A stretch of 64,000 nt of DNA from a virus: positions 1-64,000 of the IMG/VR virus record IMGVR_UViG_3300020221_000005, one strand, 5' to 3'. The notes beneath the pieces were generated by a model. That model did not search any database. It was not told the DNA's origin and saw nothing but the letters and a program-made list of their open reading frames with translations. Every line of letters starts with the position of its first letter. The stretch's first letter is position 1. The position numbers and the translations under genes are program-made. This document shows, piece after piece, positions 2,163 through 30,630 of the stretch.

Positions 2163-2273
2163 ATAACGATAAAGGTATTTGCGCAGGTTTTGGTCCTCTA
2201 CCCTTGGTGCCCTTTCGGGTCGACCTGTCTGGCTATTAGTGTCGCCGCCACTTGTCTATCTGGTTTTACTTAC
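2163..2273 (-). ncRNA. Repeated phage sRNA family, long type with 5' pseudoknot (copy 1)
   Basis: TTTACT-16-TAAACT promoter (2307-2280); structured GC-rich transcript; homologous to 20038-20150. Confidence 0.6.
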
Positions 2274-2377
2274 GGGTACAGTTTATACTGATTTTATAAA
2301 AAGTAAAGAGAATTTTTTATAAAAATAATTTAAGGTATGTGTTTAAGGTATTGGTTGTGGACGTTATGGTGAAGTCA

Positions 2378-2452
2378 GATAACGATAAAGGTATATGGGT
2401 AGGGATTGGTCCCCTACTCTTGACGCCTTGCGGTCGGTCGCATCTTTATTAT
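2378..2452 (-). ncRNA. Repeated phage sRNA family, short type (copy 2)
   Basis: TTGACT-16-TAAAAT promoter (2486-2459); 39-nt core AGATGCGACCGACCGCAAGGCGTCAAGAGTAGGGGACCA. Confidence 0.65.
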
Positions 2453-2656
2453 GTGTACATTTTACATAGATTTTATAAAAAGTCAACATTAAAAAGAGAA
2501 TGGAAATTGAATGTGGGGTAGATATTTATGGTTATGTGGAGGGTGATATTGTGGTGGCGGATGAATGGGTGATTATTTATTTATGTAACCGTTTGAGTTT
2601 TAGGAATTTATGAAAGTGGTTGACATTTTATAAAGTTGGAATAAGATATTTGAACT

Positions 2657-2884
2657 ATGAATAACAAATTAAACACTATGAATAACAAATTGATTAACAA
2701 GGCTGGGTTTGAGGTTGTGCGTGGTCAGCAAGTGACAACCTTTCGGGGTGAGGAGGTTGAGGTGATTGATTGGAGGGCTCCTCACAAGCCATCTAGTTCT
2801 GGCAGGGTAGTGGTTAAGAATGTGAATGATAGTATTCGTGAGTATTTTCCGTCAGTGATTGGGTGTGAGATTGTGGTTGGTTAA
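2657..2884 (+). CDS. hypothetical early protein
   Basis: ORF directly after promoter 2620. Confidence 0.75.
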   Translation: MNNKLNTMNNKLINKAGFEVVRGQQVTTFRGEEVEVIDWRAPHKPSSSGRVVVKNVNDSIREYFPSVIGCEIVVG

Positions 2885-2930
2885 AACATACAGTTGACAA
2901 ATATAAAAAGTCGGATATTATTTATTCACT

Positions 2931-5186
2931 ATGATTATTACAGCTAAAGACACTACTGGTTTGGTTACGAACAATCTTGGGAACGAATCTCGTAAGTTGG
3001 GGATTAAGGCGAGTGGTTGGGCGCATTTGTCCACGATTTTGCGGGACAGTTTGTATTCTGACAAGATTTTGGCACCTATACGTGAATATTCGACGAATGC
3101 TATGGATGCTCATGTTGAGGCGGGCAAGCCGACTCGTCCGATTTTGGTAAAGTTACCTAATTTGATAGTTTCTACGTTTGTGGTAAGAGATTATGGAGTT
3201 GGAATGAGTGAGCAGCGAATTTGGGAGGTATTTGCTAATTATGGTGAGTCAACCAAGCGTAGTTCTAATGAACAGACTGGTATGTTAGGGATTGGTTCAA
3301 AGAGTGCGTTTGCGTACACTGATAATTTTACGATTGTGAATTATCATCGTGGGGTTAAGAGTATTTTTATGTGTCACGTCGCTGGTAGTGCGGAGGGTGA
3401 TTTGGTGCGAGTGAGTTGTGAGCCTACTGTTGAGGAAGATGGTTTGGAGATTCAGATTCCGGTGTCGAAGGGTGACGTTTCGTTGTGGGTTGACAAGGCT
3501 AAGACGTTTTTTAGTTATTGGAAAGTGACTCCTATTTTTGAGGGTAACACGGTTGTTATTGAAAAGGACAAGTCTTTATTTGAAGGTGAGACTTGGTATA
3601 TGAGTGAGAAATTGTTATCTCAGTCCAAGACTAAACTTTTGATGGGCAACATTTGTTATGAGGTTGATTCGGAACAGCTTATCAACAAAGAGGATTGCAC
3701 AACTTTTGCAAATTATAATAATTCTATTTACTCGTCGGGCATTGTTTTGAAGGCGGAGATTGGTGATGTGGATGTGGCCGCGAGTCGTGAGGGATTACAA
3801 TATACGGCTAAGACGAAGGCATATTTTGCAAAAGTTATGCCTCAGATTTTGCAACAGTTGACTAATTTGATTCAAAAGGAAATTGATGAGTGCAAGACTA
3901 ATTTTGAAAAGAAGAAATTGGTCAATCGTTTTAGTGATTATCATTCTAAGTATTATCATTTGAGGTTTGTTACGGATAATCTTATTAAGAAACTGGGTGG
4001 TAGCACTTATGATTTGAATTTGTCATCGACGGGGCCATTTGCGAGTTATGATTCTGAGAGCATTGGTCTTGCGGTTACGCGGTATAAAAAGACGCGGCGT
4101 GGGCATCGTCGAGTTCGTGCTTGTGGGCAATTTTCAACTATTGAATGTCAGGATTCCATTAAATATATTAGTGTGAACGACACTGATAAACAGATTTTGA
4201 ATCGTGTGGCGGCATTGATTGAACGTGCTCCGACGACAACGCCTGTAAAGTGGGTTTATGTTTTTAAGGTATTGGACAAAGTTAAATTTAATGCATGGGT
4301 GCGTAAGGTGGGTTTTGATATTCCGTTAATTAAGTTTGATACGTTACCGATTGTAAAGACTTCAGAATTGTATCCTACATCGTCTCAGTCTTATAGTTAC
4401 AATCCCAAGTCTGGCAAGAAGATGTTTTTGTTAGACCGTAAACGTGCTTCTTTGGCGAGGCATAGTTATTCTGATTATTACGTTCCGACGTTGGTTGATA
4501 AGAACGATAAACGGGTGATTTATGTAGAGATAAATCAGTGGCAGATTAACTTTAATGGGCGTGATTATTCGCCGGCGAGTTTTTTGGATTTTCTTACTTA
4601 TTTGGAAACCACCTTTAATATAAAACTTCCTAAAATTATCGCGGTTAGGTCATCGGCGGTCAGCAAGTTAAAAAGTCAATTTGTGAAATTGAATGTGTAT
4701 TTGAAAGAGTTATTTAGTGTGAGTCCTAATCGTGAGAAAATTGTATCGATGTTAAAAGCTGCCTGTGTCAATTACATTGAGATAGGTAGTAATTATGGTT
4801 ATAATTCGGGTGACATAGCGGGTTATATGAATTCCCATAAGTTTCGGCTTTTATTCAAAAACATTCAGACGAGTGAGATTATGGATTCGGAGAGTATTTT
4901 CTCTAAACTGAGAGAGATTATTTTTAATTCTTCAGACAGTAGAGAGCTTAAAACTTATCGTGAGGTTTTGTTAAATTTTGTATCTAACATTAAAAATTGT
5001 GAAAAAGAGATTGACGATTATAAGTCTATGGTGACATCTTTATTGAAACAGTTTAACAAGCGTTATCCGGTTTTGTGTATGATTGATGACCGTTTTATTG
5101 GAAAAAATAAAGATGAATCATACAGTAAAAATTTGGTAGAATATGTGAATTTCGTGGATGGTAACGAAAAGTTAGTAGTGAGTTAA
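2931..5186 (+). CDS. rIIA: RIIA-like protein (N-terminal GHKL/HATPase domain)
   Basis: REYSTNAMDAH, DYGVGM, STKRSSNEQTGMLGIGSKSAFAY motifs; followed by rIIB. Confidence 0.85.
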   Translation: MIITAKDTTGLVTNNLGNESRKLGIKASGWAHLSTILRDSLYSDKILAPIREYSTNAMDAHVEAGKPTRPILVKLPNLIVSTFVVRDYGVGMSEQRIWEVFANYGESTKRSSNEQTGMLGIGSKSAFAYTDNFTIVNYHRGVKSIFMCHVAGSAEGDLVRVSCEPTVEEDGLEIQIPVSKGDVSLWVDKAKTFFSYWKVTPIFEGNTVVIEKDKSLFEGETWYMSEKLLSQSKTKLLMGNICYEVDSEQLINKEDCTTFANYNNSIYSSGIVLKAEIGDVDVAASREGLQYTAKTKAYFAKVMPQILQQLTNLIQKEIDECKTNFEKKKLVNRFSDYHSKYYHLRFVTDNLIKKLGGSTYDLNLSSTGPFASYDSESIGLAVTRYKKTRRGHRRVRACGQFSTIECQDSIKYISVNDTDKQILNRVAALIERAPTTTPVKWVYVFKVLDKVKFNAWVRKVGFDIPLIKFDTLPIVKTSELYPTSSQSYSYNPKSGKKMFLLDRKRASLARHSYSDYYVPTLVDKNDKRVIYVEINQWQINFNGRDYSPASFLDFLTYLETTFNIKLPKIIAVRSSAVSKLKSQFVKLNVYLKELFSVSPNREKIVSMLKAACVNYIEIGSNYGYNSGDIAGYMNSHKFRLLFKNIQTSEIMDSESIFSKLREIIFNSSDSRELKTYREVLLNFVSNIKNCEKEIDDYKSMVTSLLKQFNKRYPVLCMIDDRFIGKNKDESYSKNLVEYVNFVDGNEKLVVS

Positions 5187-5196
5187 TATCATAGTA

Positions 5197-5234
5197 TAAC
5201 GGCGGAGAGAGAACCATCTTTCTCTCCGCCGTTA
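5197..5234 (+). terminator. stem-loop after rIIA
   Basis: TAACGGCGGAGAGA..TCTCTCCGCCGTTA inverted repeat. Confidence 0.6.
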
Positions 5235-5306
5235 AAAATAAGGTTGACAACGAGTAAATTTTTGATAAAGTAAAAAGTAGATTAAACATTAAACATTAAA
5301 CAACAA

Positions 5307-6287
5307 ATGAAAATTCCGTATATTATTACTTCTACGTCTATTACTGCGGTGATTAACGGTAAAACTTATGTGACGGATAAGACTCATAAGGAATATGAGG
5401 CTATTAAGGCGATGTTGGTGTCGGATTCTGTTGAAGTTGACAAGCTGGTTGAATTATTTGATATTACTTCGACGGTTAATCGTTATTGTGAAGGTAAGAT
5501 TTTGGTTAAACATGGTTTGGTATCTTACAATGATGTTCCAGTGGATAATTATGTGACTAAGAAAATTCTTCAATTTATGGATGAGAAGTTGCCGGTTGAA
5601 CCTATTGTGAATTTTTTGAATAGATTGATGAAGAATCCGAGTCGGCGAGCGGTTTCTGAGCTTTACACGTTTTTGGAGCATAAGAATATGCCGTTGACTC
5701 CTGATGGTTATTTTTTGGCATACAAGGGTGTGCAAACGGATTATTGGTCTAAGCACGCGAATCTTTCGACGAGAGTGATTCGTGGAAAAGTTGATAGTTC
5801 TGGTCGGCTTAACAACGCGGTGGGTGAAGTGATTGAAGTTGAACGTAACAATGTTTGTGATGATGCTTCGGTTGGTTGTGGAGAGGGCATTCACGCGGGT
5901 AGTTTGAAGTATGCTAATGATTGGGCGACTTCGGATGGGCGTTTAATGATTGTTAAGATTGACCCGGCCGATGTGGTTAGTGTGCCTACCGATTGTTCGT
6001 GTCAGAAACTTAGGACGTGTAAGTATGAAGTGGTGGCCGAACAGGTTGACAGAAGTGCGTTAAGTGATACTATGACTCCTGAAGATAAAAATCGTGTTCA
6101 GGCAACATCTAATAATGCAGAGTTCTCGACTGATGACTCATCCCTTAAATCGGAAGAATATGACCGTGGTTATTCTGCGGGTGAAAAAGACGCACAGTTG
6201 GGATTAGATTGTATTGATGAATTGTTGACGGATAGTGACTATCGAGATGGATATATTGATGGTTATAACGACTGTGATCCAATGTAG
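5307..6287 (+). CDS. rIIB: RIIB-like protein
   Basis: NPSRRAVSELYTFL, TPDGYFLAYK, CGEGIHAGS, KIDPADVVSVP, KLRTCKYEV. Confidence 0.9.
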   Translation: MKIPYIITSTSITAVINGKTYVTDKTHKEYEAIKAMLVSDSVEVDKLVELFDITSTVNRYCEGKILVKHGLVSYNDVPVDNYVTKKILQFMDEKLPVEPIVNFLNRLMKNPSRRAVSELYTFLEHKNMPLTPDGYFLAYKGVQTDYWSKHANLSTRVIRGKVDSSGRLNNAVGEVIEVERNNVCDDASVGCGEGIHAGSLKYANDWATSDGRLMIVKIDPADVVSVPTDCSCQKLRTCKYEVVAEQVDRSALSDTMTPEDKNRVQATSNNAEFSTDDSSLKSEEYDRGYSAGEKDAQLGLDCIDELLTDSDYRDGYIDGYNDCDPM

Positions 6288-6304
6288 TATAAACAAAACA
6301 TAAT

Positions 6305-6381
6305 GCGAGCCTGGTGATACATGGGGAGCACATCGGTCGTCCAGATCGAAGGGGAAGGTTTAAATCCTTCGGCTCGCTCCA
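6305..6381 (+). tRNA. tRNA-Gly(UCC), atypical (G33, T-loop UUUAAAU)
   Basis: acceptor GCGAGCC/GGCTCGC, U73, CCA; anticodon stem TCGGT/ATCGA, loop CGTCCAG. Confidence 0.75.
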
Positions 6382-6553
6382 AAACAAAAATATATGGGAA
6401 AAAGTTATAAAGCTAATAGTAAATACGAGAAGTATAAGAAGAATGGTAGTAATAAAAAGAATAATGGAAAACGACACGAACGTGAAGAAAATGAAAAGTT
6501 CGACTGGCGTAAGTCATTAGATAATTCTCAAGACTAATTTAACATATATTTAT

Positions 6554-7114
6554 ATGGGAACACGAAGTATTACGCGGGTTTTAGATGAATCAAACAATGT
6601 GATTCTAACCATGTATCGACAAATGGATGGTTATTTAGAAGGACACGGTGTCGAACTTGTTAAATTTTTGAAAGATTTCAAGATAACCAACGGAATTGAA
6701 ACCAACGTGGCGGCAAAAACTGCTAATGGAGTTGGTTGTTTAGCGGCTCAATTAGTGGGTCATTTTAAGACTGGTGTTGGCGGAATCTATCTTGTTCCGA
6801 CGTCTGCCGAAGAAGAAGAATACAATTATACCATCCGAGTTTTGGATGAGATGGTGACTCTTACCTATACACGAGGAGATGAGAGTGGAACTTTACTTCC
6901 GGTCAATGCTGATAAGATTGATAACTTTCAACAAGTGGTTGAGTTTTTATATCCGGACAAATATTTTGAGAATCAATGGCGTAAAATTCTAGTTATTTCT
7001 CGTGACGATCGGCACATAACTGGATTTGATTTAAAGAATAATAATCAGGTAAAACGTTTTCTTTTAGAAAAAGTTTTTGGTGGAGAAGACAAAGTGTTTG
7101 CATCTAGTAAATAA
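6554..7114 (+). CDS. conserved phage protein (MGTRS...YRQMDGY type)
   Basis: ORF; motif recurrent in phage early regions. Confidence 0.75.
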   Translation: MGTRSITRVLDESNNVILTMYRQMDGYLEGHGVELVKFLKDFKITNGIETNVAAKTANGVGCLAAQLVGHFKTGVGGIYLVPTSAEEEEYNYTIRVLDEMVTLTYTRGDESGTLLPVNADKIDNFQQVVEFLYPDKYFENQWRKILVISRDDRHITGFDLKNNNQVKRFLLEKVFGGEDKVFASSK

Positions 7115-7118
7115 AAGT

Positions 7119-7310
7119 ATGATAAAGTGTAAATGTTACAAGTGTGGTAAGGAAGAAGTGTTTGAAGATCATAAACAAGCCTGGATGGCTGGTTGGGATT
7201 TTCTAAGTGATGGTAAAATGATTTGTGGCGACTGTTCGTCAATGTCTTTTTCTAAAGATAATCTTCTTTCGAAAACCGCTAATAAAAAATATGAAAACTC
7301 CGAAGAATAA
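7119..7310 (+). CDS. small Zn-finger protein
   Basis: CxxC...CxxC; start moved to ATG 7119. Confidence 0.65.
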   Translation: MIKCKCYKCGKEEVFEDHKQAWMAGWDFLSDGKMICGDCSSMSFSKDNLLSKTANKKYENSEE

Positions 7311-7653
7311 ATCAAATATAAATAAGATATTCGTACCTTTTACTGGTACGATAGATCAATTATTGAATCACGTTGACAAAATTGATCCTACTCAAGTTGA
7401 AAATGTAGTGGTTAATCATACTGAAGACGTTTTTTTGGATGATAAAACCGCAATTGAAATAATTAAAAGTGAATTGAACTGTGAAAAACAACAGGCGATG
7501 GAGATCTTAAATCAAATTAAACTTGAAGAAATATCTAAAACTCTTAATGATTTAGTTGAAGAAGGTTTGGTAGAAATTAGTGAGTATGACAAAAATGGCG
7601 AACCACTATATTCTTTAACTGAAGCTGGAAAGTTGTTCTCTAAAAAAAAATAA
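7291..7653 (+). CDS. protein with C-terminal winged-helix-like segment
   Basis: LNDLVEEGLVEI...YSLTEAG; start moved to ATG 7291. Confidence 0.6.
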   Translation: MKTPKNKSNINKIFVPFTGTIDQLLNHVDKIDPTQVENVVVNHTEDVFLDDKTAIEIIKSELNCEKQQAMEILNQIKLEEISKTLNDLVEEGLVEISEYDKNGEPLYSLTEAGKLFSKKK

Positions 7654-7668
7654 TTAACAAAAATAAAT

Positions 7669-8004
7669 ATGATTGATGGAAATAATGTTACACTTGAAGT
7701 GGTAAAAGATTCTAAAACAGTTATTAAACGTGGTCCTGGCCGGCCTAAGACCAAAATGACACTTAAACGAGTAGTTTTATTGAATGGCAAACCAGTAGGG
7801 CGTGGTCGACCCGGTAAAACGAGTTGTTCTAATCGAACGGTAGTGTTTATTCCTATAAATGAAACCTATAACGAGTCTGTTCATGGTGTTGGTAAGAAGT
7901 ATATTTCAGGTTTGAATCAATATACGCATCAAATTAAACGGGTTGATTTGAATAACTTTACAAAATTAACTAAAATGACAAACAAAACTATGGTCGAGGC
8001 GTAA
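7669..8004 (+). CDS. basic protein with AT-hook-like motifs
   Basis: KRGPGRPK and GRGRPGK. Confidence 0.65.
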   Translation: MIDGNNVTLEVVKDSKTVIKRGPGRPKTKMTLKRVVLLNGKPVGRGRPGKTSCSNRTVVFIPINETYNESVHGVGKKYISGLNQYTHQIKRVDLNNFTKLTKMTNKTMVEA

Positions 8005-8025
8005 AATCGCCAAGGAAATGGGGGA

Positions 8026-8060
8026 GAATTCTCACCGGTCAAAAGCCGGTGAGAATTTTT
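8026..8060 (+). terminator. intrinsic terminator
   Basis: AATTCTCACCGG-tcaaaag-CCGGTGAGAATT followed by T run. Confidence 0.7.
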
Positions 8061-8072
8061 ATATTAAAGTTA

Positions 8073-8147
8073 GATAACGATAAAGGTATTATTGCAGGAT
8101 TTGGTCCCCTACTCTTGACGCCTTTCGGTCGGTCGCATCTTTACTGT
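8073..8147 (-). ncRNA. Repeated phage sRNA family, short type (copy 3)
   Basis: TTGACT-16-TAAACT (8181-8154); core at 8102-8140. Confidence 0.65.
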
Positions 8148-8240
8148 AGGTACAGTTTATCTTAATTTTAAAAAAAGTCAAATGCTAATTTTTAAAAGTT
8201 GGAGGCTTGACTTTTTATAAAACCGATGTAGGATTATGTT

Positions 8241-8531
8241 ATGACTAAAAACGAAGTTCTCTCTGTTCGTGAACAGATTCAAGAAGATTTAATTTGTCTG
8301 TTGGATTCGCAATTTGGTGAAGTCAAATATGTCGGCACGCTACGTGGTCATCCACAACGACTTCACCATTCCGCCGTTCGTCGGATTTACCACGACGATA
8401 AAGTAAAGGATTTGGCGTGTCAAATTGTGGTTGATAATTTTAATAAACTTGACCTTGATAGCCTTGATAACGTGCCGTGCACCAACGACACGTCGCCGGT
8501 CAGCCCGTCGCTCCAGGATTCTAATGACTAA
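8241..8531 (+). CDS. hypothetical protein, paralog of 11930..12142
   Basis: REQIQEDL...KDLACQIV; near-leaderless after promoter 8207. Confidence 0.75.
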   Translation: MTKNEVLSVREQIQEDLICLLDSQFGEVKYVGTLRGHPQRLHHSAVRRIYHDDKVKDLACQIVVDNFNKLDLDSLDNVPCTNDTSPVSPSLQDSND

Positions 8532-8748
8532 AAACACCGACATTCCCAATCCCCTCACCGCTAAGCAACTCAAGGATTATGTTAAACACGGCGGGAGTTA
8601 TTGCCCTGTCTGCCGTAGTGATTCGCTCGAAGGCGAATCCTACGCAAACTATGGCGTGGGCGTCGTGTATCAGCCTGTGTTGTGCCTGTCCTGTGGAGCA
8701 CGGTGGACGGATGGATACACGCTGACTAGCGTTTGGCTTGACAAATAG
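8524..8748 (+). CDS. Zn-ribbon protein
   Basis: CPVC...CLSCGARW; start moved to ATG 8524. Confidence 0.7.
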   Translation: MTKNTDIPNPLTAKQLKDYVKHGGSYCPVCRSDSLEGESYANYGVGVVYQPVLCLSCGARWTDGYTLTSVWLDK

Positions 8749-8771
8749 AAAAACTCTGATAGGATTTTATT

Positions 8772-9005: not shown

Positions 9006-9041
9006 TAAATAATACTTACGTCATTAAATAATATAAATAAA

Positions 9042-9299: not shown

Positions 9300-9354
9300 T
9301 TTGATTAGTTTAAAAATAGTTTATACTGGTCTTAACATTAACCAATAAAAAATT

Positions 9355-10212: not shown

Positions 10213-10255
10213 TGTTGGCTCTTGACAAGTTTCAAAAAACCTGTATACTCTTAAC

Positions 10256-10367
10256 ATAATTAACCGTGTAGATTGCCACGGCGGGAAACCGAAAGAGCGT
10301 ATCTAAGGAACTGCTGACAATGCGGCGGCAAAGACTCCTAAAGTTTAATCAATAAACCCGCATTTTT
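10256..10367 (+). ncRNA. promoter-driven structured RNA with two predicted pseudoknots
   Basis: TTGACA-16-TATACT (10222-10249); no substantial ORF; multiple complementary segments; ends in T run. Confidence 0.55.
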
Positions 10368-11922: not shown

Positions 11923-11929
11923 ACAACAT

Positions 11930-19250: not shown

Positions 19251-19964
19251 TTAAATTTCAGGTTCTACCACAAATCCACTTTCATCTTTTTTAGCTCTAC
19301 CTTTTTCGATTAAACCTACCACGACATTTTTCTCATCAGTAAAACGAAGGTCCGTCAAATCTCCGTCAACAACTTTGTAGCCTTTGTAATTTGTCGGTAA
19401 CGAATTACGAAAAACTACCGCAACATTTCCACCTGACTTCAAAACCAAGTCAACTTGATTGTCGTTTGTCTCACTACGGCTAAAAGTTAGATGATAATTC
19501 TTAGGAAGAGTACCCGTAATAAATTTATTCATCCGTTCAAAAGACTTGGTATAATCGTAAAATTGAACAACTGGAAAGTGTTCCATAATGTTTTTACCAT
19601 TAAGATTGATATTTTCCCATGGCAAATCACTGGTTCCATTGAGCCGGATGCATGGTATTTTACCTTGTTTATCGGCCTTTTTCAGAAGTTTTGTGATTTC
19701 AGAGGAAAGCTGACTCATCCAAATACCTTTGTTCTTGAAAAATGCCAATGTTTTAGCCACTCGTGCTTCCCTCACGTTAGACATAACGCCACGACCAGCA
19801 GTAAATAGACACGCAGATTTGCAACCAACAGAAGCGTTCTTGCACGTATTATAACCCGATTCGTCAGCGGGAGCCAAATACGAAATGCCAGTGATGTAAC
19901 CGAATTTAGAACCTTTGACGGTTTTAGCGTTAGTGTCGATTCCAAGAATAGGTTGACGTTTCAT
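19251..19964 (-). CDS. GP88-family phage protein
   Basis: CKNASVGCKSACL, RLNGTSD, FYDYTK, NYHLTFS, DGDLTDLRF. Confidence 0.75.
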   Translation of the reverse strand: MKRQPILGIDTNAKTVKGSKFGYITGISYLAPADESGYNTCKNASVGCKSACLFTAGRGVMSNVREARVAKTLAFFKNKGIWMSQLSSEITKLLKKADKQGKIPCIRLNGTSDLPWENINLNGKNIMEHFPVVQFYDYTKSFERMNKFITGTLPKNYHLTFSRSETNDNQVDLVLKSGGNVAVVFRNSLPTNYKGYKVVDGDLTDLRFTDEKNVVVGLIEKGRAKKDESGFVVEPEI

Positions 19965-20037
19965 AGTGAAAATAATCTATTAAATTTATAAAAAGTCAAG
20001 CTGATATATTGGTTCTTTCTGCAATCACTATAGACTT

Positions 20038-20150
20038 AATTTACTTTATTTTCAGTAAAGTGATTTGCGCACCCTCCGGTACCCTATCCTCGGCGCCTTG
20101 GAAGGTCTGGCCGGATCGTCCTTTAAGTGTCGGACACCACTTTCACTTAC
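20038..20150 (-). ncRNA. Repeated phage sRNA family, long type with 5' pseudoknot (copy 4)
   Basis: TTGACT-16-TAAACT (20184-20157); covaries with copy 1. Confidence 0.6.
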
Positions 20151-20310
20151 AAGGACAGTTTAGACTAAATTTATAAAAAGTCAACCGTTATTTTATAAAA
20201 AATGAAGATTGACATTTTGAACATTTATTAGTATTGTATTTTCATAATCAAAAACGACACGTTTTTCCTCAATTAAACATTCGAAATTGGTAATTTAAGA
20301 TTTTACAAAT

Positions 20311-21722: not shown

Positions 21723-23090
21723 ATGAACATGAACTCGCATCGTCGAACGTTTCTCAAGGGCGTCACCCTCGGAGCAGGAGCGGTAGTGCTGCAACCGGTG
21801 CTGCAGCAACTGCACGCCGAGGCCAACGGCAAAGCCGCCCCACGGAGGATTGTCTTTTTCCTCGAAGGCAACGGCATGCCCCCCGCGCACATCCAGCCGG
21901 TGGGACTGGATCGCCCGGAGGGTGCAAATAACGGGAGCGACAAACTTATCGACGAGTCCCTGGCGAAATACAAACTGCCCGATCCGATCGCGGCGCTGGC
22001 TCCCTTCCAGAACCGCATGACGATCATCCAGGGGCTTTCTCACAAGATCGCATCGGGGCGCGGTCACTCGCCGGAGTTTGGATCTCTGGGTTGCTACAGC
22101 GGCGCGGCGGGACCGATCGAGCAGACCATCGACGCGGCGCTGGCGGCCAAATTGCCGAGTGTTGTACCGCATCTGGGTTTGGCTCTGACTCCCAGCGCCG
22201 AGTCGATCGTCAGTTACTCCTGTTCGGTCACGTCCAAAGGAAAGCCGCTTCCGTTGCTTTGCAAGCCGGAACTCGCCTTCCAGTCGCTGTTCGGCAGTGC
22301 CGCCGGGGGAGAGGCCGCCAAGACTCCCTTCCTGCGACAGAAGCTGATGGATTACATGAGCGGGGATATTAAGCGAGTCCAATCGCAGTTGGCCGGACCG
22401 GAGCGAGAGAGCCTCGACCGATACCTCGAAGCGTACGAAACGATGCTCGATCGTCACCACGGCATCATCGGCATGAAGGACGCATTGAAGGCGAACATGC
22501 CTAATACCGACAAGTTCAAGAGCACGAAAGAGACCGACCGTCTCGAAGCGCAGTGCGACATGGCCGCCAGTTCGTTGCTGTCGGGCCTGACGAATGTGGT
22601 CACGATCTCTGCCTGTACGGGGAACAGCTACATGCAGTGGAACAGTCTCGGCATGACGCTTCGCACCAACGCCATCGGTCACGGTGGCGGGGAAAATGGC
22701 AAGACATCCGATGAACTGCTGAGAATTATTCGAGCGTTCCATGCCGAGCGGATCGCCGCCTTGGCGAAGAAACTGGACGCCGTCAAGGAAGGCAACGGCA
22801 CGGTGCTCGACAACACGCTGATCGTTTACATGAGCGACTTCGGCGACCGTCACCATCCGTCCTACCTGCAGTGGCCGGTGGTGCTCATTGGCAACTTGGG
22901 CGGCAAGCTAAAGACCAATGGACGATTCCTGGAATATCCTCGCTACGGTGTCAAAGGACATCGAACCATCGGGACGTTGTATCAAGGCCTGCTCCACACG
23001 GTGGGCGACAACCGCGAGCAGTTCAACAACGTCGATCTGGCACTCGACAAGAGCGCCACGCAAGGACCGCTGTCCGAGATCCTGGCGTAG
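21723..23090 (+). CDS. DUF1552-family protein with Tat-like signal, host-derived (GC-rich)
   Basis: RRTFLKG, PRRIVFF..GNG, GTVLDNTLIVYMSD, HHPSY..WPVVLIG; GC far above flanks. Confidence 0.85.
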   Translation: MNMNSHRRTFLKGVTLGAGAVVLQPVLQQLHAEANGKAAPRRIVFFLEGNGMPPAHIQPVGLDRPEGANNGSDKLIDESLAKYKLPDPIAALAPFQNRMTIIQGLSHKIASGRGHSPEFGSLGCYSGAAGPIEQTIDAALAAKLPSVVPHLGLALTPSAESIVSYSCSVTSKGKPLPLLCKPELAFQSLFGSAAGGEAAKTPFLRQKLMDYMSGDIKRVQSQLAGPERESLDRYLEAYETMLDRHHGIIGMKDALKANMPNTDKFKSTKETDRLEAQCDMAASSLLSGLTNVVTISACTGNSYMQWNSLGMTLRTNAIGHGGGENGKTSDELLRIIRAFHAERIAALAKKLDAVKEGNGTVLDNTLIVYMSDFGDRHHPSYLQWPVVLIGNLGGKLKTNGRFLEYPRYGVKGHRTIGTLYQGLLHTVGDNREQFNNVDLALDKSATQGPLSEILA

Positions 23091-23631: not shown

Positions 23632-23675
23632 AGGCTTGACTTTTTATAAAATTAGAGTATTCTATTTTTATATTT

Positions 23676-24035: not shown

Positions 24036-24078
24036 AATAAAGCTTGTTTATTAAAAAAAACTTGATATATTAAAAAAT

Positions 24079-24408
24079 ATGAAAATACATCCTCTAAATA
24101 AAGAAATCTATAACCTCGCCCTTAAACTTGGAGTTCAAAAAATTGAACTGAACTTTTCAGGAGGTAGCGATGAGGGTTATCTTGACGTAGTCGTTTATCC
24201 GTTCGGCACAGCTAATAAGGAAAATAATCTAACAACTAAAATTGAAGAATGGGCATGGAATGTTTATTCGTATAGCGGTGCAGGTGATGGAAATGACTAC
24301 GGTGATGATGTAGTCTATGACCTAGAAAAGAAAACCGTACATAGTTCCGAATGGTCTATGGTCCGACATGATAGTGGAAATTCTAAAATTTCATTACAAG
24401 TCGATTAA
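24079..24408 (+). CDS. DUF6878-like protein
   Basis: FSGGSDEG; adjacent to DUF6915-like gene. Confidence 0.55.
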   Translation: MKIHPLNKEIYNLALKLGVQKIELNFSGGSDEGYLDVVVYPFGTANKENNLTTKIEEWAWNVYSYSGAGDGNDYGDDVVYDLEKKTVHSSEWSMVRHDSGNSKISLQVD

Positions 24409-24481
24409 ATCGCACAACTAAAATTAATAACATTTGCTAAAAAGTCAAACGATAAATTTCAAATCGATGGTATTTAATTTA

Positions 24482-24552
24482 ACGATAACGCAATGTAGGT
24501 AGGAATTGGTCCCCTACTCTTGACGCCTTTCGGTCGGTCGCATCTTTATTAT
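24482..24552 (-). ncRNA. Repeated phage sRNA family, short type (copy 5)
   Basis: TTGACT-16-TAGACT (24586-24559); core at 24507-24545. Confidence 0.65.
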
Positions 24553-25074
24553 GCGTACAGTCTACTAAAAATTTATAAAAAGTCAACCGTTATTTTATAA
24601 AAAATGAAGATTGACATTTTGAACTTTTATCGGTATTCTATTTTGACAGTTGAAAATTCTAAAATAAACTGATTGAAAAACTTCCTATAAATCTTATTTA
24701 ATAATAATTATGACTGTATTATCTTTGGTATTCTATTTGGTTGGTGATTTTATCATTTGGATTTCTCAGATGGTTTCTAATCTCGGAAATTTACTATACT
24801 CTTTGGGAAATAAAATTTGTGAATGGGGTGATTAAAATAATATAATTAAATAATATTATTAAATAATATGTTTATTCAAGGCAAGTATATGAAAGTTATT
24901 GGAAATAATAAAGAAGGAATATGGTTCTTGGATGAGGAAGAATTGTATGAGATTTTTATTTCTTTTATTGATTTGCCTAAATATGCTGCAATTCATCCAG
25001 TTTTGGTGATGTGAGTCTTGACAAATAAAAAAACTTTGATAGGATTCTATTATGATGAACAGCGCGGCCTTCGC

Positions 25075-25398
25075 ATGAAATACCAAACCAAATACGACAG
25101 CCTGCAAATTTGGCACCTGCACAAACTGTTTGCCGATGAAGCCTTTTCGAAGTGGGTCGTCAACGAGATCGTCAGCGGCGAAAGAGACTTGTCACCCGAC
25201 GAGATTGAACTGCGTGATCAGGCGCTTAGAAACGCTGAAGTCGAACGCGCCTTCCTGCGTTCCCTCTGGTCCGCCCGCGAGGCTCGTCTGCACAACCCAA
25301 AGGAAACTTCGGCGCACTTGGATAAAGCTATGAAAGAAATAGAATTATATTATATTGCCCCAGGAATTATCAAATACAAAATCAAAAAGAAAAAATGA
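25075..25398 (+). CDS. hypothetical protein (GC-richer)
   Basis: start moved to ATG 25075, coupled to mini-ORF 25052..25078. Confidence 0.65.
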   Translation: MKYQTKYDSLQIWHLHKLFADEAFSKWVVNEIVSGERDLSPDEIELRDQALRNAEVERAFLRSLWSAREARLHNPKETSAHLDKAMKEIELYYIAPGIIKYKIKKKK

Positions 25399-25453
25399 TT
25401 ACCACAAGGAATGATAGCCTTGACAAATAAAAAAACTTTGATAGGATCTTATT

Positions 25454-25708
25454 ATGATGACCGAGTTGACTAAACGTGAGCTTGAGATTATTCGGGTTGC
25501 GCTTTCCTACATGAGCAGCAACGTTTCTGATATAAACGAGGTCGTTGGCAAAGATTTTGATTCCAATTTTACCGAAGCCGAGGTTTGTGATGTCCAGAGA
25601 AAGTTGCTCTCCGAAGATCCGCTCTTCAAAGAGCTGATGGCGGAAGGTCTGGCGATGCAGGACCGCTTCTCGGCGGAACCGGTTTACGCTAAGACCGGCA
25701 AGGACTAG
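25454..25708 (+). CDS. hypothetical protein
   Basis: leaderless after promoter 25420. Confidence 0.7.
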   Translation: MMTELTKRELEIIRVALSYMSSNVSDINEVVGKDFDSNFTEAEVCDVQRKLLSEDPLFKELMAEGLAMQDRFSAEPVYAKTGKD

Positions 25709-25788
25709 CTTACGAGAACACGAGCAACTATCTGTTGCAACGATTATACAAGTCTTGACAAATAGAAAAACTTTGGTAGGATTCTATT

Positions 25789-26004
25789 ATGAATTCTCAA
25801 AACTGCATGGCCAAATACGAAATTACCGTTGAAGAAATTTGTGAAATTCGTCACGCAATGGCAAATGCCAAAGGTGCTTTAATTGCAATCTCAAATTTTG
25901 AACAGTTAGATCACGTAAAAGATTTGATTCAATCTCACATCGAAAAGCTTGAATCCGCATTACAAACGAGTAACAAATGTTTGGACCGTCGTTCTGAAAA
26001 TTAA
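25789..26004 (+). CDS. hypothetical protein
   Basis: leaderless after promoter ~25755. Confidence 0.7.
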   Translation: MNSQNCMAKYEITVEEICEIRHAMANAKGALIAISNFEQLDHVKDLIQSHIEKLESALQTSNKCLDRRSEN

Positions 26005-26028
26005 CTTTTTAAGTTGGTTTTATTTTTT

Positions 26029-26244
26029 ATGCCTTCTAAAAAACAAAAACCCGGTTTTAGGACAAACTTAAGAAATCGTTACGAATTGGCGAGTCATTCA
26101 ATTTTTAATAAACTGCCTGCGTGGAAACAATCCGCGATTAAAATTGATCGACAAACAGGTAATTTTAACAGTCATGTAATGAACGAATATGCTAAACAAG
26201 TCGAAAATCTTGTCAATGATAACACTGAAATATTTTTGACGTAA
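26029..26244 (+). CDS. hypothetical protein, paralog of 23116..23295
   Basis: start moved to ATG 26029. Confidence 0.7.
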   Translation: MPSKKQKPGFRTNLRNRYELASHSIFNKLPAWKQSAIKIDRQTGNFNSHVMNEYAKQVENLVNDNTEIFLT

Positions 26245-26296
26245 ACTAACCTTTTGAGGTTGACTTATTTTAAATTACTGATATTATTTTTTCACA

Positions 26297-26617
26297 ATGA
26301 ATCAACCAATCTACCACGAAACCTCGGCTGCCATTTACTTCGATAACGGTGACGGAAGTTTAACGGTTAAACAAAAACGAAACGTCACAATAAGGAAAAC
26401 CATCGCGACGTTTAAAAACGACGATCTTGGACGTTTAGCATATAAAAACTTCCGAAAAACTCTTGTTAATAAGGAAAATATCTATTGTCTTTACCGATGC
26501 CCTAATGACGGTAGAACTTATGACAAGACTGCTCCTTTTTCGACAAGTCGTTCTCGACGTGGTTCTATTCGTAAAAAATTTGCTAAAGTAATGACGGTTC
26601 TTCAATCAAATAGATAA
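26297..26617 (+). CDS. basic protein, paralog of 31603..31917
   Basis: IYHE..GDGSLT..LYRCPNDGRTYD..SRRGSI. Confidence 0.75.
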   Translation: MNQPIYHETSAAIYFDNGDGSLTVKQKRNVTIRKTIATFKNDDLGRLAYKNFRKTLVNKENIYCLYRCPNDGRTYDKTAPFSTSRSRRGSIRKKFAKVMTVLQSNR

Positions 26618-26660
26618 ATTCTATGAAGATGAAAACCACTAAACCAAAACTCATTTCCGA

Positions 26661-26912
26661 ATGAAAACCATCGTCCTAGTGTTCGTTCAACAAGAAGGCG
26701 AACCGCAGTATTGCATCGGGCAAGTTGCGGTCGAAAACACGTTGCTTCGGGCCGATGAACCCGATGCCTTGCTGAAAGAACTTTGGGCGGAATGGCGGAA
26801 AGATGTTGAGGAACCCGATTCCGATTCCGAGTTCATTGATTGGCTTGTAACGAACAAGCCGGGATTTGATGCCGTTGTCATGCCAGTGACTTACACGGTT
26901 ATCAAAGACTAA
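26661..26912 (+). CDS. hypothetical acidic protein (GC-richer)
   Basis: ORF; coupled to mini-ORF 26623..26664. Confidence 0.65.
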   Translation: MKTIVLVFVQQEGEPQYCIGQVAVENTLLRADEPDALLKELWAEWRKDVEEPDSDSEFIDWLVTNKPGFDAVVMPVTYTVIKD

Positions 26913-26966
26913 AAACTCATAATTCAAGAGTGAAAATATTATACAATTTGTTAAATCTTAAATAAT

Positions 26967-27041
26967 TCCAGAGTAGCTCAATTGGTAGATTGCGTTCGGC
27001 TGTTAACCGAAATGTTGTAGGTTCGAGTCCTACCTCTGGAG
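26967..27041 (+). tRNA. tRNA-Asn(GUU), D-stem with 2-nt insertion, CCA not encoded
   Basis: TCCAGAG/CTCTGGA, G73, loop CTGTTAA. Confidence 0.85.
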
Positions 27042-27116
27042 CTCTTTTAATTTTGAGGCTTGACTTTTTATAAAAATCTTCTATACTTTCCTCACAATGA
27101 AAAACGAAATGAAAAT

Positions 27117-27362
27117 ATGAAACTCAATCATACATTTGAAGATTACTTTTGTCACCAAGGCCGCGAATACTATCTCTGTACGGATTACGAATTCGATCAT
27201 GCCGATAGATTACAACTCGCCAACTTCGCCATGTGGAAATCCAACCATTATGGCGACAAAATTTCGCAAAAAGAATTTGAAGCAGACCAAGAGCTCTATG
27301 ATACTGTCTGCGAAATTCTCGCAAATCAAAACCCGACTTGCTACGGCGGTGCGCCTTGCTAA
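27117..27362 (+). CDS. hypothetical protein
   Basis: start moved to ATG 27117, coupled to mini-ORF 27097..27120. Confidence 0.65.
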   Translation: MKLNHTFEDYFCHQGREYYLCTDYEFDHADRLQLANFAMWKSNHYGDKISQKEFEADQELYDTVCEILANQNPTCYGGAPC

Positions 27363-27593
27363 CTCGCGCAGCTTATCAATCGAAAAAGTTGTGCCAATCG
27401 TTCTTTAAAAACTTTTTGACAGCAGCATACATTGATGTATGAATACGATGAGTGAATCGTTGAAAGTATCTAGCCAACACCTAGCCGATGTTGGTCTGCT
27501 GTCATTCTTCTTTGGGTGTAGAAGTTTACACAAAGCGTTTTTTTTCAAATTGAGGCTTGACGTTTTATAAAAATCCTCTATACTGTTTTCACA

Positions 27594-28097
27594 ATGAAAA
27601 TTAAAAAACACTCAGTCGTTAAGACCCTTGTTGACCTCCCGAGCCAGAATGATGTTAAACGAATCCTCCCGGCCGGCACCGTTGCTCAAGTGAGCAAGGT
27701 TTATCGTGATGGTAATCGGAAACTGTATCTCTACTGTAATTACTATGGTTTCTTGGCTGCCGAACACGAAGTCGAACTGACGCCTGGCAATCGTCAAGTT
27801 CCCAAGGTCGGTGACGTGTTCCTGACCTCATGGGGTTACGATCAGACCAACATCGACTTTTATCAGATTACCGCCGTGAAGGGTGAGTCGGTGAAGGTTC
27901 GTCAGATTCGTGGCGAGACAGTCAACTACGCCAATATGTCAGGCGAAGTACGGGCGGTTAAGGATTCGTTCTGTGGTGAGGAAATGACCAAAAGGTTGAA
28001 ATACTCCATCAAAGGCATCCCTTCCTTCAGAATTGCCAGTTACGCTAACGCTTTTCCTGATGACGGAGGCACCCACTTCTTCAGCGAGTGGCACTAA
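27594..28097 (+). CDS. conserved phage protein (SWGYDQTNIDFYQ type)
   Basis: motif; near-leaderless after promoter 27557. Confidence 0.75.
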   Translation: MKIKKHSVVKTLVDLPSQNDVKRILPAGTVAQVSKVYRDGNRKLYLYCNYYGFLAAEHEVELTPGNRQVPKVGDVFLTSWGYDQTNIDFYQITAVKGESVKVRQIRGETVNYANMSGEVRAVKDSFCGEEMTKRLKYSIKGIPSFRIASYANAFPDDGGTHFFSEWH

Positions 28098-28237
28098 CCC
28101 AACGTCTACAAGAGAATTTAGATTACATCTATGAAAGTTAATAACTAAATTTTAGCCTATCGAGGCATCCTAATCGCCTCCGAATTCATTGTCCACTCTT
28201 GTTCCGTAGTGGGGCTTACACGGAACATTTTTTTACC

Positions 28238-28420
28238 ATGAAAATTACACCAATTAAAGATTGTGTCAATTACATCGTTGGTTGTGGCTTTACTTTCGAG
28301 GGAAAGGCGGGCAGAAACACCTACGTTTTTCGTAAAAATGTAGGAACCATGCCGAATGGGAGCGACGTGGTTTTCTTCACTCTGTCAGAACTTCGTCACG
28401 CTGAAAAGTTTGGATGGTAA
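28238..28420 (+). CDS. hypothetical protein
   Basis: start moved to ATG 28238. Confidence 0.6.
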   Translation: MKITPIKDCVNYIVGCGFTFEGKAGRNTYVFRKNVGTMPNGSDVVFFTLSELRHAEKFGW

Positions 28421-28465
28421 AAAAACAGTCGACTTTGTATAAAAATCCTCTATACTGTTTTTACA

Positions 28466-28735
28466 GTGAAAATTGAAAATTACATCGGACCTAAAATGAA
28501 AGCAACCATTGCTCCTCTCGAAATCGCTGTGAACCACACTGTTCGCCCCGATGTGGGACGTGAATTTATCTCCTTCTCGATCACTGGTTGGGATGACGTT
28601 AAGAAATTAACTAAAAAGGTGCTTGTCTATGACGGACGTAAGTTTGTGTTCTCCTGCTGGGATTCCGACAGAATGGAGTGCGTGTTCTATCGCATGTTGG
28701 ATGGTTCGACAATCACCGCGAAAATTGCAAAATAA
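28466..28735 (+). CDS. hypothetical protein
   Basis: after TCGACT..TATACT promoter. Confidence 0.7.
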   Translation: MKIENYIGPKMKATIAPLEIAVNHTVRPDVGREFISFSITGWDDVKKLTKKVLVYDGRKFVFSCWDSDRMECVFYRMLDGSTITAKIAK

Positions 28736-28738
28736 TCT

Positions 28739-29512
28739 ATGAAAAGTGTTAAAATAAAAAGCAAGTGTGGCACAACAATGGAAATACTATCATTCGATCC
28801 TGTATTAGAACTATTCTATTGTTTTATGCCTGTTTTAAAGAAGACTTTTAGTATTCATTCTTCTGGCATTGACATTGATGAAGAAAAACTAGATACTCTT
28901 AAAGAGGAGATGACAAATAAAACCAACCTACAACGTCTTACTGTGGGCAGCTGTCTTGCTGTCTCAAACCTCATAGACAAGACCGTTCGTTATACGACGA
29001 CTGGAAAAACTTTCTCCATCGACGTTTTAGAGAGCGATTACGGAAACAAATCGAAGGCGAATAATCTCATTACCATGCATTCTGTTAGCTGTGCTCGCAA
29101 GGCATCTTTTGACGAATTTGTGTCTATGGTAGACAATGACTACTTCGAGGAATTTGTGTATTTGTTCACCCCTGGTCGCGGCTGGACCACTCTTTACCCA
29201 CTGTTGGATATGAGCGGCGGACATAAGAAATCACCAGTAACAGAATACGTTATTTCTCGCCTTAACAAGATAGCGCCAGGTTTTCTATTATTTCCAAAGG
29301 ATTTTCAATGGCTTTTGGAACTAAACCGTTGCCATGGAAAGACGAAGATCACGAATGAAAGTCTAGTATCGGCAATGCGTAAGGCTCTGCCAAAGGAAAC
29401 GGAAAAATACTCTAAGAAATATGATAAATTCCCCGCAATGTGCGATCCGTGGGAGCTACTGATCGAAGCGGGGATTTGTGATATACACACTATTGCGACA
29501 AAAAATTTATGA
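28739..29512 (+). CDS. hypothetical, possibly mosaic protein
   Basis: 257-aa ORF. Confidence 0.65.
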   Translation: MKSVKIKSKCGTTMEILSFDPVLELFYCFMPVLKKTFSIHSSGIDIDEEKLDTLKEEMTNKTNLQRLTVGSCLAVSNLIDKTVRYTTTGKTFSIDVLESDYGNKSKANNLITMHSVSCARKASFDEFVSMVDNDYFEEFVYLFTPGRGWTTLYPLLDMSGGHKKSPVTEYVISRLNKIAPGFLLFPKDFQWLLELNRCHGKTKITNESLVSAMRKALPKETEKYSKKYDKFPAMCDPWELLIEAGICDIHTIATKNL

Positions 29513-29700
29513 AAAGAGTAATTATTGACAATAAATACACTTATGAAACCAACATACCACGTCTTCGTGTGGGCAACAAAGTCGTCCTTCCTACGCCGTA
29601 TTGGTTAAGAGATGTTCGGGGGAACACGTGGATAGGACGAATCACTTCCATGACCAGCACTTATGAGGGATATTGTGAAAAAATTATCAGTAGAGCTTGA
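29509..29700 (+). CDS. hypothetical protein
   Basis: ATGA overlap. Confidence 0.65.
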   Translation: MKRVIIDNKYTYETNIPRLRVGNKVVLPTPYWLRDVRGNTWIGRITSMTSTYEGYCEKIISRA

Positions 29701-29759
29701 CAAATCCAACCCAATCTGTTAAAAGTAATAATAAATAGTATTCAACAATAAAACCTACT

Positions 29760-30275
29760 ATGCCAAACTGGTGCAATAATCAAATTGAAATTACCGCAAC
29801 CTCTCCACAAGAGTTTAAGAAATTCCATGAACATATGGGAGATTATTTTTCTTTTGAACGAATCGTTCCCACGCCGCTTGCTGCGGATGGTAAAGTTATA
29901 GAGAACTGGTACACTTGGCGGCTCGAACATTGGGGAACCAAGTGGGACTTGGAGAAGGAAGAATTTCTTGCTGGGAATCAAGATGCTTGGAAATTTTCTG
30001 ATACGGATGATTCTGTGACTTTGAATTTCGATACCGCTTGGGGGCCACCAATCGAAGCCTTAAAAAATTTGGTGGAGAAGTTTCCTGCGCTCACGATAGA
30101 CCTTAAGTATTTTGAACCGGGAATGGCTTTCGGCGGCGTGGCGAATTTTTCTGCGCGAGATGGTTTTACTGAACGATGTTACAAAAGCCATGAGCCAGAA
30201 TATGCAGAGCTTGTCGAGGATTTTTCTTACCAAGACGAAAATCTTTCGCCAGATCAAGACGAAGGAAAACTTTAA
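29760..30275 (+). CDS. DUF1281/Api92-like (YubB ferredoxin-like) protein
   Basis: MPNWC.N, NWYTWRLEHWGTKWD, FDTAWGPP, YFEPGM. Confidence 0.8.
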   Translation: MPNWCNNQIEITATSPQEFKKFHEHMGDYFSFERIVPTPLAADGKVIENWYTWRLEHWGTKWDLEKEEFLAGNQDAWKFSDTDDSVTLNFDTAWGPPIEALKNLVEKFPALTIDLKYFEPGMAFGGVANFSARDGFTERCYKSHEPEYAELVEDFSYQDENLSPDQDEGKL

Positions 30276-30339
30276 GAAAATCTTTAATTCGACATCAAGG
30301 GCTTGACATTTTATAAAAAGTAGATAAACTGTTTGCACA

Positions 30340-30450
30340 ATGAATAACGCAACCGACCCCAACAACTCTAAGCTCGACCCGCAAGATGAGGATGACTTCG
30401 CGCTGATGGTGATGGTTTTACTGATAGTGGTGGTGGTGATGTTCTGGTGA
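30340..30450 (+). CDS. 36-aa single-pass membrane peptide (not in track)
   Basis: near-leaderless after promoter 30303; FALMVMVLLIVVVVMFW. Confidence 0.5.
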   Translation: MNNATDPNNSKLDPQDEDDFALMVMVLLIVVVVMFW

Positions 30451-30547
30451 CGGGTCGGGCGTGGATGACTTCGCGGAATTTCGTCATCGTGTGTATGGTG
30501 AGCCGTTGCCGGCTTGACATTTTATAAAAAGTAGATAAACTAGTCAC

Positions 30548-30630
30548 AGTTGAGATGCGACCGACCGAAAGGCGTCAAGAGTAGGGGACCAGGGGGTGCG
30601 CAAATTACTTTACTGAAAATAAAGTAAAAT
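30548..30630 (+). ncRNA. Repeated phage sRNA family, hybrid copy on + strand (copy 6)
   Basis: TTGACA-16-TAAACT (30514-30541); core 30553-30591; 3' tail shared with 20038-20075. Confidence 0.65.

Follow-up and report, generated by a model that had tools for sequence, protein, structure and literature searches.

A multi-copy family of promoter-coupled small structured RNAs in the early regions of uncultivated large phages

Background

The early regions of T4-type phages are laid out as cassettes in which a terminator is joined to a promoter, the PeSLs of Arbiol, Comeau and Krisch (PMC2839356, PMC4122927). The put RNA of phage HK022 is ~70 nt long, folds into two stem-loops just behind the promoter PL and is present in more than one copy per genome (PMC9378689). 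The linear element boxA has the gamma-proteobacterial consensus GYTCTTTAANA (PMC5725501). Here we describe a repeated element in a stretch of 64,000 nt (hereafter the window), which represents bases 1-64000 of the 103,351-base IMG/VR virus record IMGVR_UViG_3300020221_000005, estimated to be ~34% complete. A first reading of its letters (the original prediction) had proposed that six loci of this window form a family of promoter-driven small structured RNAs, named A to F below.

Abundant RNAs that present repeated recognition motifs include CsrB/RsmZ, 6S RNA and the phage decoys (RNA anti-CRISPRs and pseudo-ToxI). To our knowledge, conserved structured RNA families are few in phages, and almost none comes from T4-type or jumbo phages. 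The six repeats of the window are copies of a previously unrecorded small structured RNA family, in which a covarying hairpin (P1) and linear boxes at fixed spacing follow a promoter. The family and its multi-copy deployment in T4-related or jumbo phages are new; phage promoter-proximal or small regulatory RNAs are a known kind. We tentatively favour an early RNA that would act in trans as a decoy or sponge, the main rival being a cis-acting element comparable to put.

Results and discussion

Size and distribution of the family

All six loci are present as described in the original prediction. A covariance model built from 64 distinct sequences matches the 103-kb record in exactly these six places, with 58 to 82 bits, and the string TAGRGKACC is found at the six loci only in this whole record. 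The near-identical core reported for four of the copies was recovered as a 38-nt stretch with at most one mismatch, for which 0 occurrences are expected by chance.

The proposed search of viral metagenomes and the covariance model revealed a family far larger than six copies. One degenerate pattern, covering the upper part of P1 and the conserved box 3' of it, retrieved at least 80 metagenome stretches, some of them labelled marine, and three viral contigs; all family counts given here are among the matches listed by this search. Two of the metagenome matches (L048 and L076) have no promoter and look like chance matches. The covariance model found 95 copies (83 distinct) in 59 sources. Copies are dispersed on both strands, many contigs carrying two to five of them; six lie in 30 kb of the present phage and four within 14 kb of a 250-kb phage record (G002). 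The carriers are uncultivated large lake, soil and marine phages. Several early protein families are common to their contigs, so they represent one broad phage clade and not unrelated phages.

The element is absent from cellular genomes, the pattern having no match in 185,579 prokaryote species genomes. Among 50,697 GenBank phages, blastn of a family member and megablast of 6.4 kb of the window gave chance hits only. The original prediction had recognised no known family, and none of the 4227 models of Rfam 15 matches the element. At the gathering threshold, the whole window contains only tRNAs and the tmRNA, and more permissive scans of window positions 1900-2600 (E≤10) and of six metagenomic loci (E≤1) yielded nothing beyond chance hits to miRNAs and snoRNAs. 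None of the six loci was called a tRNA or tmRNA by ARAGORN or the Rfam tRNA model. A literature search that included sequence strings of the element found no paper describing the family.

Promoter coupling and the P1 hairpin

A -35/-10 pair lies upstream of the element in 62 of 66 distinct loci. The distance from the end of the -10 box to the core is 13-30 nt, and 49-72 nt in long types. Each copy of the window has its own promoter, as had been claimed, of the standard TTGAC[TA]-16-TAnnnT type (the -35 box of copy F is TTTACT), and begins 13-57 nt past the -10 box. The absence of a start codon at the leaderless position was likewise borne out: the ATG of the phage genes mostly stands 9 nt past the -10 box, and the first ATG is found 13-15 nt past it in copies A-D and not within 70 nt in copy E.

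In its usual form P1 is composed of G-R-N, C, G, A, CC, GNRA, GG, C and N-Y-C. The RNAalifold consensus pairs 8-29, 9-28, 10-27, 12-26, 14-25 and 15-24 and predicts no other helix. Standard pairing is kept in 99.3-99.5% of the cells over the 83 distinct sequences, with 26 cells altered on both sides; one pair swaps among GC, AU and CG, the next among CG, UA and AU. The outer stem occurs as GGC/GCC, GAC/GUC, GGA/UCC and GGU/ACC, and in copy F the change from CC to CCC is matched by one from GG to GGG. Neither shuffles nor slid registers come near this covariation, which was not built in by the search, because the 5' strand of these two pairs lies outside the pattern and the 3' strand in a gap of free bases. 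The outer-stem covariation perceived in the original prediction is thus strengthened by the homologs (99.3% paired). The P1 loop is GAAA, GCAA or GGAA in 62 of 79 copies.

These data bear on the possibility that the element is a translated micro-open reading frame, encoding a nine-residue leader peptide MRPT(E/A/G)RR(Q/R)E that would stop at the conserved UAG. The frame runs from the AUG of GAUGMG, and an in-frame AUG, GUG or UUG is present in 47 of 83 distinct copies, 29 of which read MRPTERRQE or MRPTARRQE. Codon 2 is always one of the Arg codons CGA, CGG and AGG, the last codon is GAG or GAA where the AUG is present, and some contigs have the AUG ~10 nt past the -10 box, near the usual start of the phage. 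However, in 30 of the 83 copies the 7-nt flank checked offers no start codon in frame, and the paired CC/GG insertion shifts the frame of the long types. Moreover, the compensatory swap from GGC/GCC to GGA/UCC in P1 replaces Pro by Thr and Arg by Leu at the same time, and the E/A/G variation at the GNRA loop suits a tetraloop rather than a peptide. We therefore consider translation very unlikely as the general function and at best a slight possibility in one subgroup; to judge from these patterns, the dominant constraint on the element is RNA structure.

The conserved box, the tail and further helices

The near-invariant box RAGRRUAGGGKACC lies 3' of P1, its commonest form being AAGAGUAGGGGACC (26 of 79 copies). 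It is followed by a variable spacer, which begins with GGAG in 33 of 79 copies. Identity in the core columns is 90-100%, and the flanks, the spacer and the details of P1 vary; the 14-nt box is kept over 83 distinct copies while the neighbouring DNA is fully diverged. A tail (YUUUAWCG, in fuller form YUUUAWCGWUA) is found in 49 of 79 copies, as CUUUAUCG, CUUUAACG or CGUUAUCG in 44 and as close variants in five; it starts 17 nt past the box in 43 copies and 16 nt past it in six. The other 30 copies have different 3' modules. Diverged copies keep the box and the tail, and their P1 is reduced to 2-3 bp with a 5-nt loop. The box, with the tail where present, is thus the core of the family and the fine details of P1 are dispensable.

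One subfamily (L016, L017, L020, L025, L026, L044, L056, L065, L077 and L086) has the CUUUAWCG tail swapped for another conserved module 40-60 nt past the box. It consists of YUGUAUUGC or CCUAUUR followed by a GCCAUAUGGCAUACCA-like sequence and ends at the GCTTGAC of the next promoter. This sequence may constitute another RNA module, or else serve the promoter behind it as an operator.

Beyond P1, no single helix holds family-wide. Box and spacer can pair in several registers: GUAGG with CCUGC or CCUAC, UAGGG with CCCUA, and GKACC with GGUGC around a GGAG loop. The hairpin of GUAGGG with YCCURC described for three copies exists in A-C, but it is not a feature of the family: as a family helix, GUAGG/CCUGC has 64% of its cells paired and its register shifts between subtypes. 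The display of GACCAA in a loop and the CGA/C internal loop, to which the original prediction had drawn attention, proved not to be essential, diverged copies having a 2-3 bp hairpin in place of P1. A far helix between UAGGGK and MCUUUA of the tail was also rejected (72% paired), as it fails where the tail is UUUUAAC; one of its pairs has a suggestive G-C/U-A swap (16, 4, 2 and 6 in a hand tally). Long forms (E, F, L079, L085 and L090) carry an added 5' hairpin with a loop starting GACAC, and their 5' end can pair with the tail. Such a leader-tail closing helix is strong in F, E and a distinct relative, L055, and is not general (mean z -0.33 over 63 copies).

Small size, conserved junctions, dispersal in phage metagenomes and occurrence in either orientation are typical of small ribozymes, and the present element is small, multi-copy and found in either orientation, with junction-like conserved nucleotides between short variable helices. 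A self-cleaving ribozyme of a new class, or a signal for processing by a nuclease, was therefore considered. We give it little credence: no Rfam ribozyme matches even at E up to 10, covariation supports one helix only, and strict coupling to a promoter is unexpected for a ribozyme.

The box resembles several sites of ribosomal RNA. It matches the 3' strand of 5S loop E (CGAGAGTAGGGAAC) at 13 of 14 positions and also resembles 16S helix 45 (GTAGGGGAACCTGCGG) and the 23S sarcin-ricin loop (GAGGACCGGAG). Mimicry of rRNA was rejected, since three unrelated sites score about alike, as expected of chance among purine-rich motifs. Comparison with the E. coli rrnH operon was not significant (cmsearch E 2.6-9, nhmmer E 0.39-4), and pairwise alignments to the 3' end of 16S rRNA gave a family mean z of 1.2. 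The 16S model RF00177 has no match in the record, and the 5S model RF00001 gave no hit in the Rfam scans.

Mosaic copies in PeSL-like surroundings

The copies are mosaics, as the original prediction had noted, since a 30-nt tail block (GTGCGCAAATYACTTTACTGAAAATAAAGT) is common to D and E alone. In relatives, decayed copies (L033:3552-3611 and L067:416-481) retain GAUGCGAC and P1 and have lost the box and the tail, so the two halves of the element are separable by recombination. The flanks are those of PeSLs: a near-consensus early promoter with a stem-loop directly against it recurs between the small early genes. In relatives, stem-loops adjoin TTGAC, and in the window the promoter motif TTGACTTTTTATAAA was counted 38 times (≤2 mismatches), where 1.3 would be expected. 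This shared cassette architecture accounts for the mosaic copies. The likeness is confined to the flanks. A PeSL comprises a terminator and a promoter only, whereas the element is a conserved module, constrained at the RNA level, that lies downstream of the promoter.

Such surroundings raise the question of whether the element has any RNA function at all, or is a passenger of mobile PeSL-type cassettes or a site spread by recombination at the DNA level. Mosaicism, the decayed P1-only copies and the 38 standard promoters of the window agree with this, as do the PeSL cassettes that shuffle T4-type early regions (PMC2839356, PMC4122927). However, compensatory changes keep P1 paired and the 14-nt box persists in 83 distinct copies amid fully diverged DNA, and we hold this to be the least probable of the explanations, though only slightly below the other minor ones.

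Genomic context and possible action in cis

Orientation of the element varies. On crude open reading frame maps read by eye, about nine loci run in the direction of both neighbours and about six against both, the others being mixed. In the window, B and C oppose both of their neighbours, which lie on the + strand; copy 2 of G002 likewise opposes both of its own. Copies D and E are followed by a promoter and gene of the same strand. Transcription from A and F would enter a non-coding stretch of 1.2 kb that contains iteron-like repeats and G-run palindromes. The element of L055 faces a non-coding AT-rich stretch of ~700 nt. Of 66 loci, 27 have the next promoter 39-65 nt past the box, and in most of these an ATG follows its -10 box within a few nt. 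At least five unrelated gene families are represented downstream. A promoter of its own precedes every flanking gene, none of which therefore depends on the element. With its varying orientation, differing downstream families and self-promoted neighbours, the element behaves like a unit of its own and not like the leader of one gene.

The original prediction had also suggested an R-loop or primer RNA, which would serve replication origins in the way that transcripts prime those of T4. The T4 genome has several dispersed origins. The G-rich box would favour RNA-DNA hybrids, and the claim is weakly supported, as A, F and L055 do face long non-coding stretches, the one in the window holding iteron-like repeats and G-rich palindromes and that of L055 ending in a similar G-run palindrome. 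The other copies do not: most are wedged between genes or promoters, with neither a non-coding stretch nor repeats downstream, and there are up to five copies within a few kb. A conserved, sequence-specific box is also unnecessary for R-loop formation, and a primer function appears highly improbable.

The main rival to a decoy is a cis-acting element of the put or nut kind. The nascent hairpins and boxes would bind the transcribing RNA polymerase, alone or with Nus-type factors, and make it resistant to pausing, to Rho or to the terminators between early cassettes. HK022 put RNA needs no protein factors to curb pausing and termination by its own polymerase, on which it acts in cis. Like putL of HK022, the element is directly behind an early promoter and ~70 nt long, and it may likewise form two hairpins (PMC9378689); it is phage-encoded and multi-copy as are putL and putR, the comparison being one of published descriptions. 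In a manner recalling lambda nut and the boxB-boxA of rrn, most copies present a GNRA-type hairpin and then linear boxes at fixed spacing, promoter-proximal and in boxB-boxA-like order, and the tail has CUUUAA in common with the boxA consensus GYTCTTTAANA (PMC5725501). No terminator is part of the element, which often runs on into the promoter and gene behind it; T4-type early regions are rich in terminator-promoter composites (PMC4122927), and the extension of T4 early transcripts past Rho sites is unsettled (PMC2988021).

Several features depart from these systems. Many copies face a convergent terminator or run opposite to both neighbours, which makes a general role in cis doubtful, and downstream genes have their own promoters. 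Unlike in HK022 put, only P1 covaries, the second hairpin shifts register and there are four to six or more copies per genome; the carriers are large and of virulent type, whereas put phages are lambdoid. The dominant box RAGRRUAGGGKACC has no counterpart in nut or rrn, and diverged copies have P1 replaced by 2-3 bp hairpins with other loops. Identity of the tail with boxA was rejected: YUUUAWCGWUA contains only CTTTAA, the 5' G, Y and T and the last A are missing, and the consensus agrees at only six of ten specified positions, many copies having U at position 9 where boxA has A. The tail is missing in ~38% of copies (30 of 79), and the family model has no match in the E. coli rrn leader. Action in cis therefore seems to us unlikely, though it is to be taken more seriously than translation, self-cleavage, priming or a passenger origin.

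A candidate early decoy or sponge RNA

The decoy or sponge proposed in the original prediction remains the reading that we favour, with less than even confidence, for its copy number, strong promoters, free orientation and invariant boxes. The independence of the element's orientation from its neighbouring genes argues for a stand-alone RNA. We infer that the RNA is transcribed, acts in trans and binds protein. The strong sigma70-type promoter would make each copy a small independent non-coding transcription unit of the early phase. The first ~75-115 nt of its RNA would present the P1 hairpin, a purine-rich single-stranded box, part of which may fold back into a variable local hairpin, and in ~60% of the copies the AU-rich tail. 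With many copies behind consensus promoters, the cell would be flooded early with this RNA, whose invariant boxes would bind a conserved protein and so titrate or redirect it. Candidate partners include phage and defence proteins as well as host factors involved in transcription, translation or RNA decay. Loss of most of P1 in diverged copies, with box and tail retained, is what recognition of the linear boxes would predict. No antisense target of at least 9 nt for the box was found in the 103-kb record, which speaks against regulation of phage mRNAs by base pairing. The element resembles the protein-titrating RNAs in its proposed logic only, with no similarity of sequence or structure; unlike in those RNAs and the phage RNA decoys, its copies are dispersed and not tandem. 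No CRISPR-like repeat of the element sequence was found in the 185,579 species genomes.

Several observations weigh against this proposal. No terminator belonging to the element was found, and with the next promoter so close to the box in 27 of 66 loci its 3' end has no clear position and transcripts may continue into the next cassette, as would suit a cis-acting leader. A partner protein was sought by co-occurrence, and the early families shared by the carriers had no informative Pfam or PHROG hit and no RNA-binding Pfam hit. Since the carriers share early genes, the invariance of the box could in part reflect common descent in one clade and not strong selection. Finally, the folding energies of single copies are ordinary (z -0.03 to -1.6), that is, not more stable than shuffles.

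A box nearly unchanged amid drift points to a specific molecular partner, as far as sequence can indicate, and finding it would reveal a step of early take-over or counter-defence carried out by RNA and not by protein. It is a rather doubtful, if attractive, idea that this clade of T4-related or jumbo environmental phages possesses an RNA-only device for taking over a universal host machine, by put-like loading of the polymerase or by a multi-copy decoy. The decoy would strip away a conserved host factor, for example a Nus factor, a ribosomal protein or an RNA-targeting defence protein. The put-like form, if true, would be a concrete candidate for the long-postulated early anti-termination or transcript-protection system of T4-type phages. 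The family is abundant in public metagenomes, multi-copy per genome and tied to the strongest early promoters. The element also offers a clean sequence tag by which early regions of this uncultivated clade can be recognised.

The six copies and their surroundings

Positions of the copies, their cores and promoters are given in Table 1.

Table 1. Element copies, shared cores and promoters in the window
Feature	Position	Strand	Remarks
Copy F, long type	2150..2273	-	model match 2160-2232, 65.6 bits
Promoter of copy F	2274..2307	-	TTTACT, 16-nt spacer, TAAACT
Copy A, short type	2366..2452	-	model match 2376-2446, 76.8 bits
38-nt core of copy A	2407-2444	-	
Promoter of copy A	2453..2486	-	TTGACT, 16-nt spacer, TAAAAT, plus start region
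Copy B, short type	8061..8147	-	model match 8071-8141, 82 bits
38-nt core of copy B	8102-8139	-	
Promoter of copy B	8148..8181	-	back to back with + strand promoter at 8207
Copy E, long divergent type	20036..20150	-	model match 20046-20119, 58 bits
Promoter of copy E	20151..20184	-	
Copy C, short type	24466..24552	-	between two + strand genes; model match 24476-24546, 75.4 bits
38-nt core of copy C	24507-24544	-	
Promoter of copy C	24553..24586	-	
Promoter of copy D	30514..30547	+	
Copy D, short-type core with E-type tail	30548..30632	+	model match 30552-30622, 80.3 bits
38-nt core of copy D	30554-30591	+	

Copy A reads from P1 (GAC-CGA-CC-GCAA-GG-C-GUC) through the box AAGAGUAGGGGACC and the hairpin GUAGGG/CCCUAC into the tail CCUUUAUCGUUAUC. 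Copy F has an extra 5' hairpin (GGC-GACACUAAUA-GCC), P1 in the form GGU-CGA-CCC-GAAA-GGG-C-ACC, the box AAGGGUAGAGGACC and a double UUAUCG tail, and its 5' GGCGGCGA is able to pair with the 3' UCGUUAUCGCC in a duplex of -16.2 kcal/mol. In copy E the extra 5' hairpin is GUCC-GACACUUAAA-GGAC and P1 is GGC-CAGA-CC-UUCCAA-GG-C-GCC; after the box GAGGAUAGGGUACC come a GUACC-GGAG-GGUGC hairpin and the tail in common with D. A separate promoter (19999) and a GP88-family gene (19251-19964) are located downstream. Copy B runs into a hairpin (~8028-8060) that is the terminator of the convergent gene 7669-8004, and copy D is followed by the promoter of a near-leaderless gene (30673-30996).

This last gene encodes a member of a family of 107-111-aa proteins with the motif GVGFSGCDAEILSSF and no Pfam hit, also found at L091:3525-3851 and in L033, L062 and L064. 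In three or more contig groups of distinct sequence, both large phage records among them, a gene of this family comes immediately after the element. Directly behind copy C, a second minus-strand promoter of the standard type (24421-24448) has no open reading frame and is directed at the 3' end of a + strand gene (24079-24408), an arrangement kept in L050 and L057; it may give an antisense transcript. At 10222-10290 (+), another standard promoter has no ATG within the following 70 nt. Behind it, a CCGUG/CACGG hairpin and then a CGG-GAAA-CCG hairpin form a different candidate for a promoter-driven RNA.

The window encodes 8 tRNAs and a tmRNA, homologs of rIIA and rIIB (PHROG E 1e-102 and 7e-67), a helicase and a baseplate wedge protein. 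Short gene cassettes, each with a promoter TTGAC[TA]-16-TAnnnT, occupy ~2.6-35 kb. Near-identical DNA is present in ~20 lake-water metagenome runs; for positions 1800-8400, the matching runs are of DNA only. A search with the rIIA protein found no close relatives of the phage, and rIIA was not found in the three other element-carrying records examined. A DUF1552/HXXSHH gene (21723-23090; Pfam E 2e-37) has 48% GC against 35-40% in the surrounding early region and looks host-derived.

Direct repeats resembling iterons (CTAACATTATTAGG, present three times within a duplicated unit of ~57 bp) occupy positions 1950-2110 of the left non-coding region, just downstream of copy F, where the GC skew switches sign; this is a possible origin or packaging region. 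A microsatellite-like run of GTGAT/GTGTGAT is found at 1640-1690. A G-run/C-run palindrome, CGAGGGGGGG(G)TACCACCCCC(C)TC, is present in two copies (1235-1262 and 1343-1370), with a T-run after the second. The sequence GGGGGGTAC occurs five times in the record against ~0.2 expected by a rough composition estimate, and a palindrome like the pair at 1235-1370 closes the non-coding stretch behind the element in L055 (~6500-6560).

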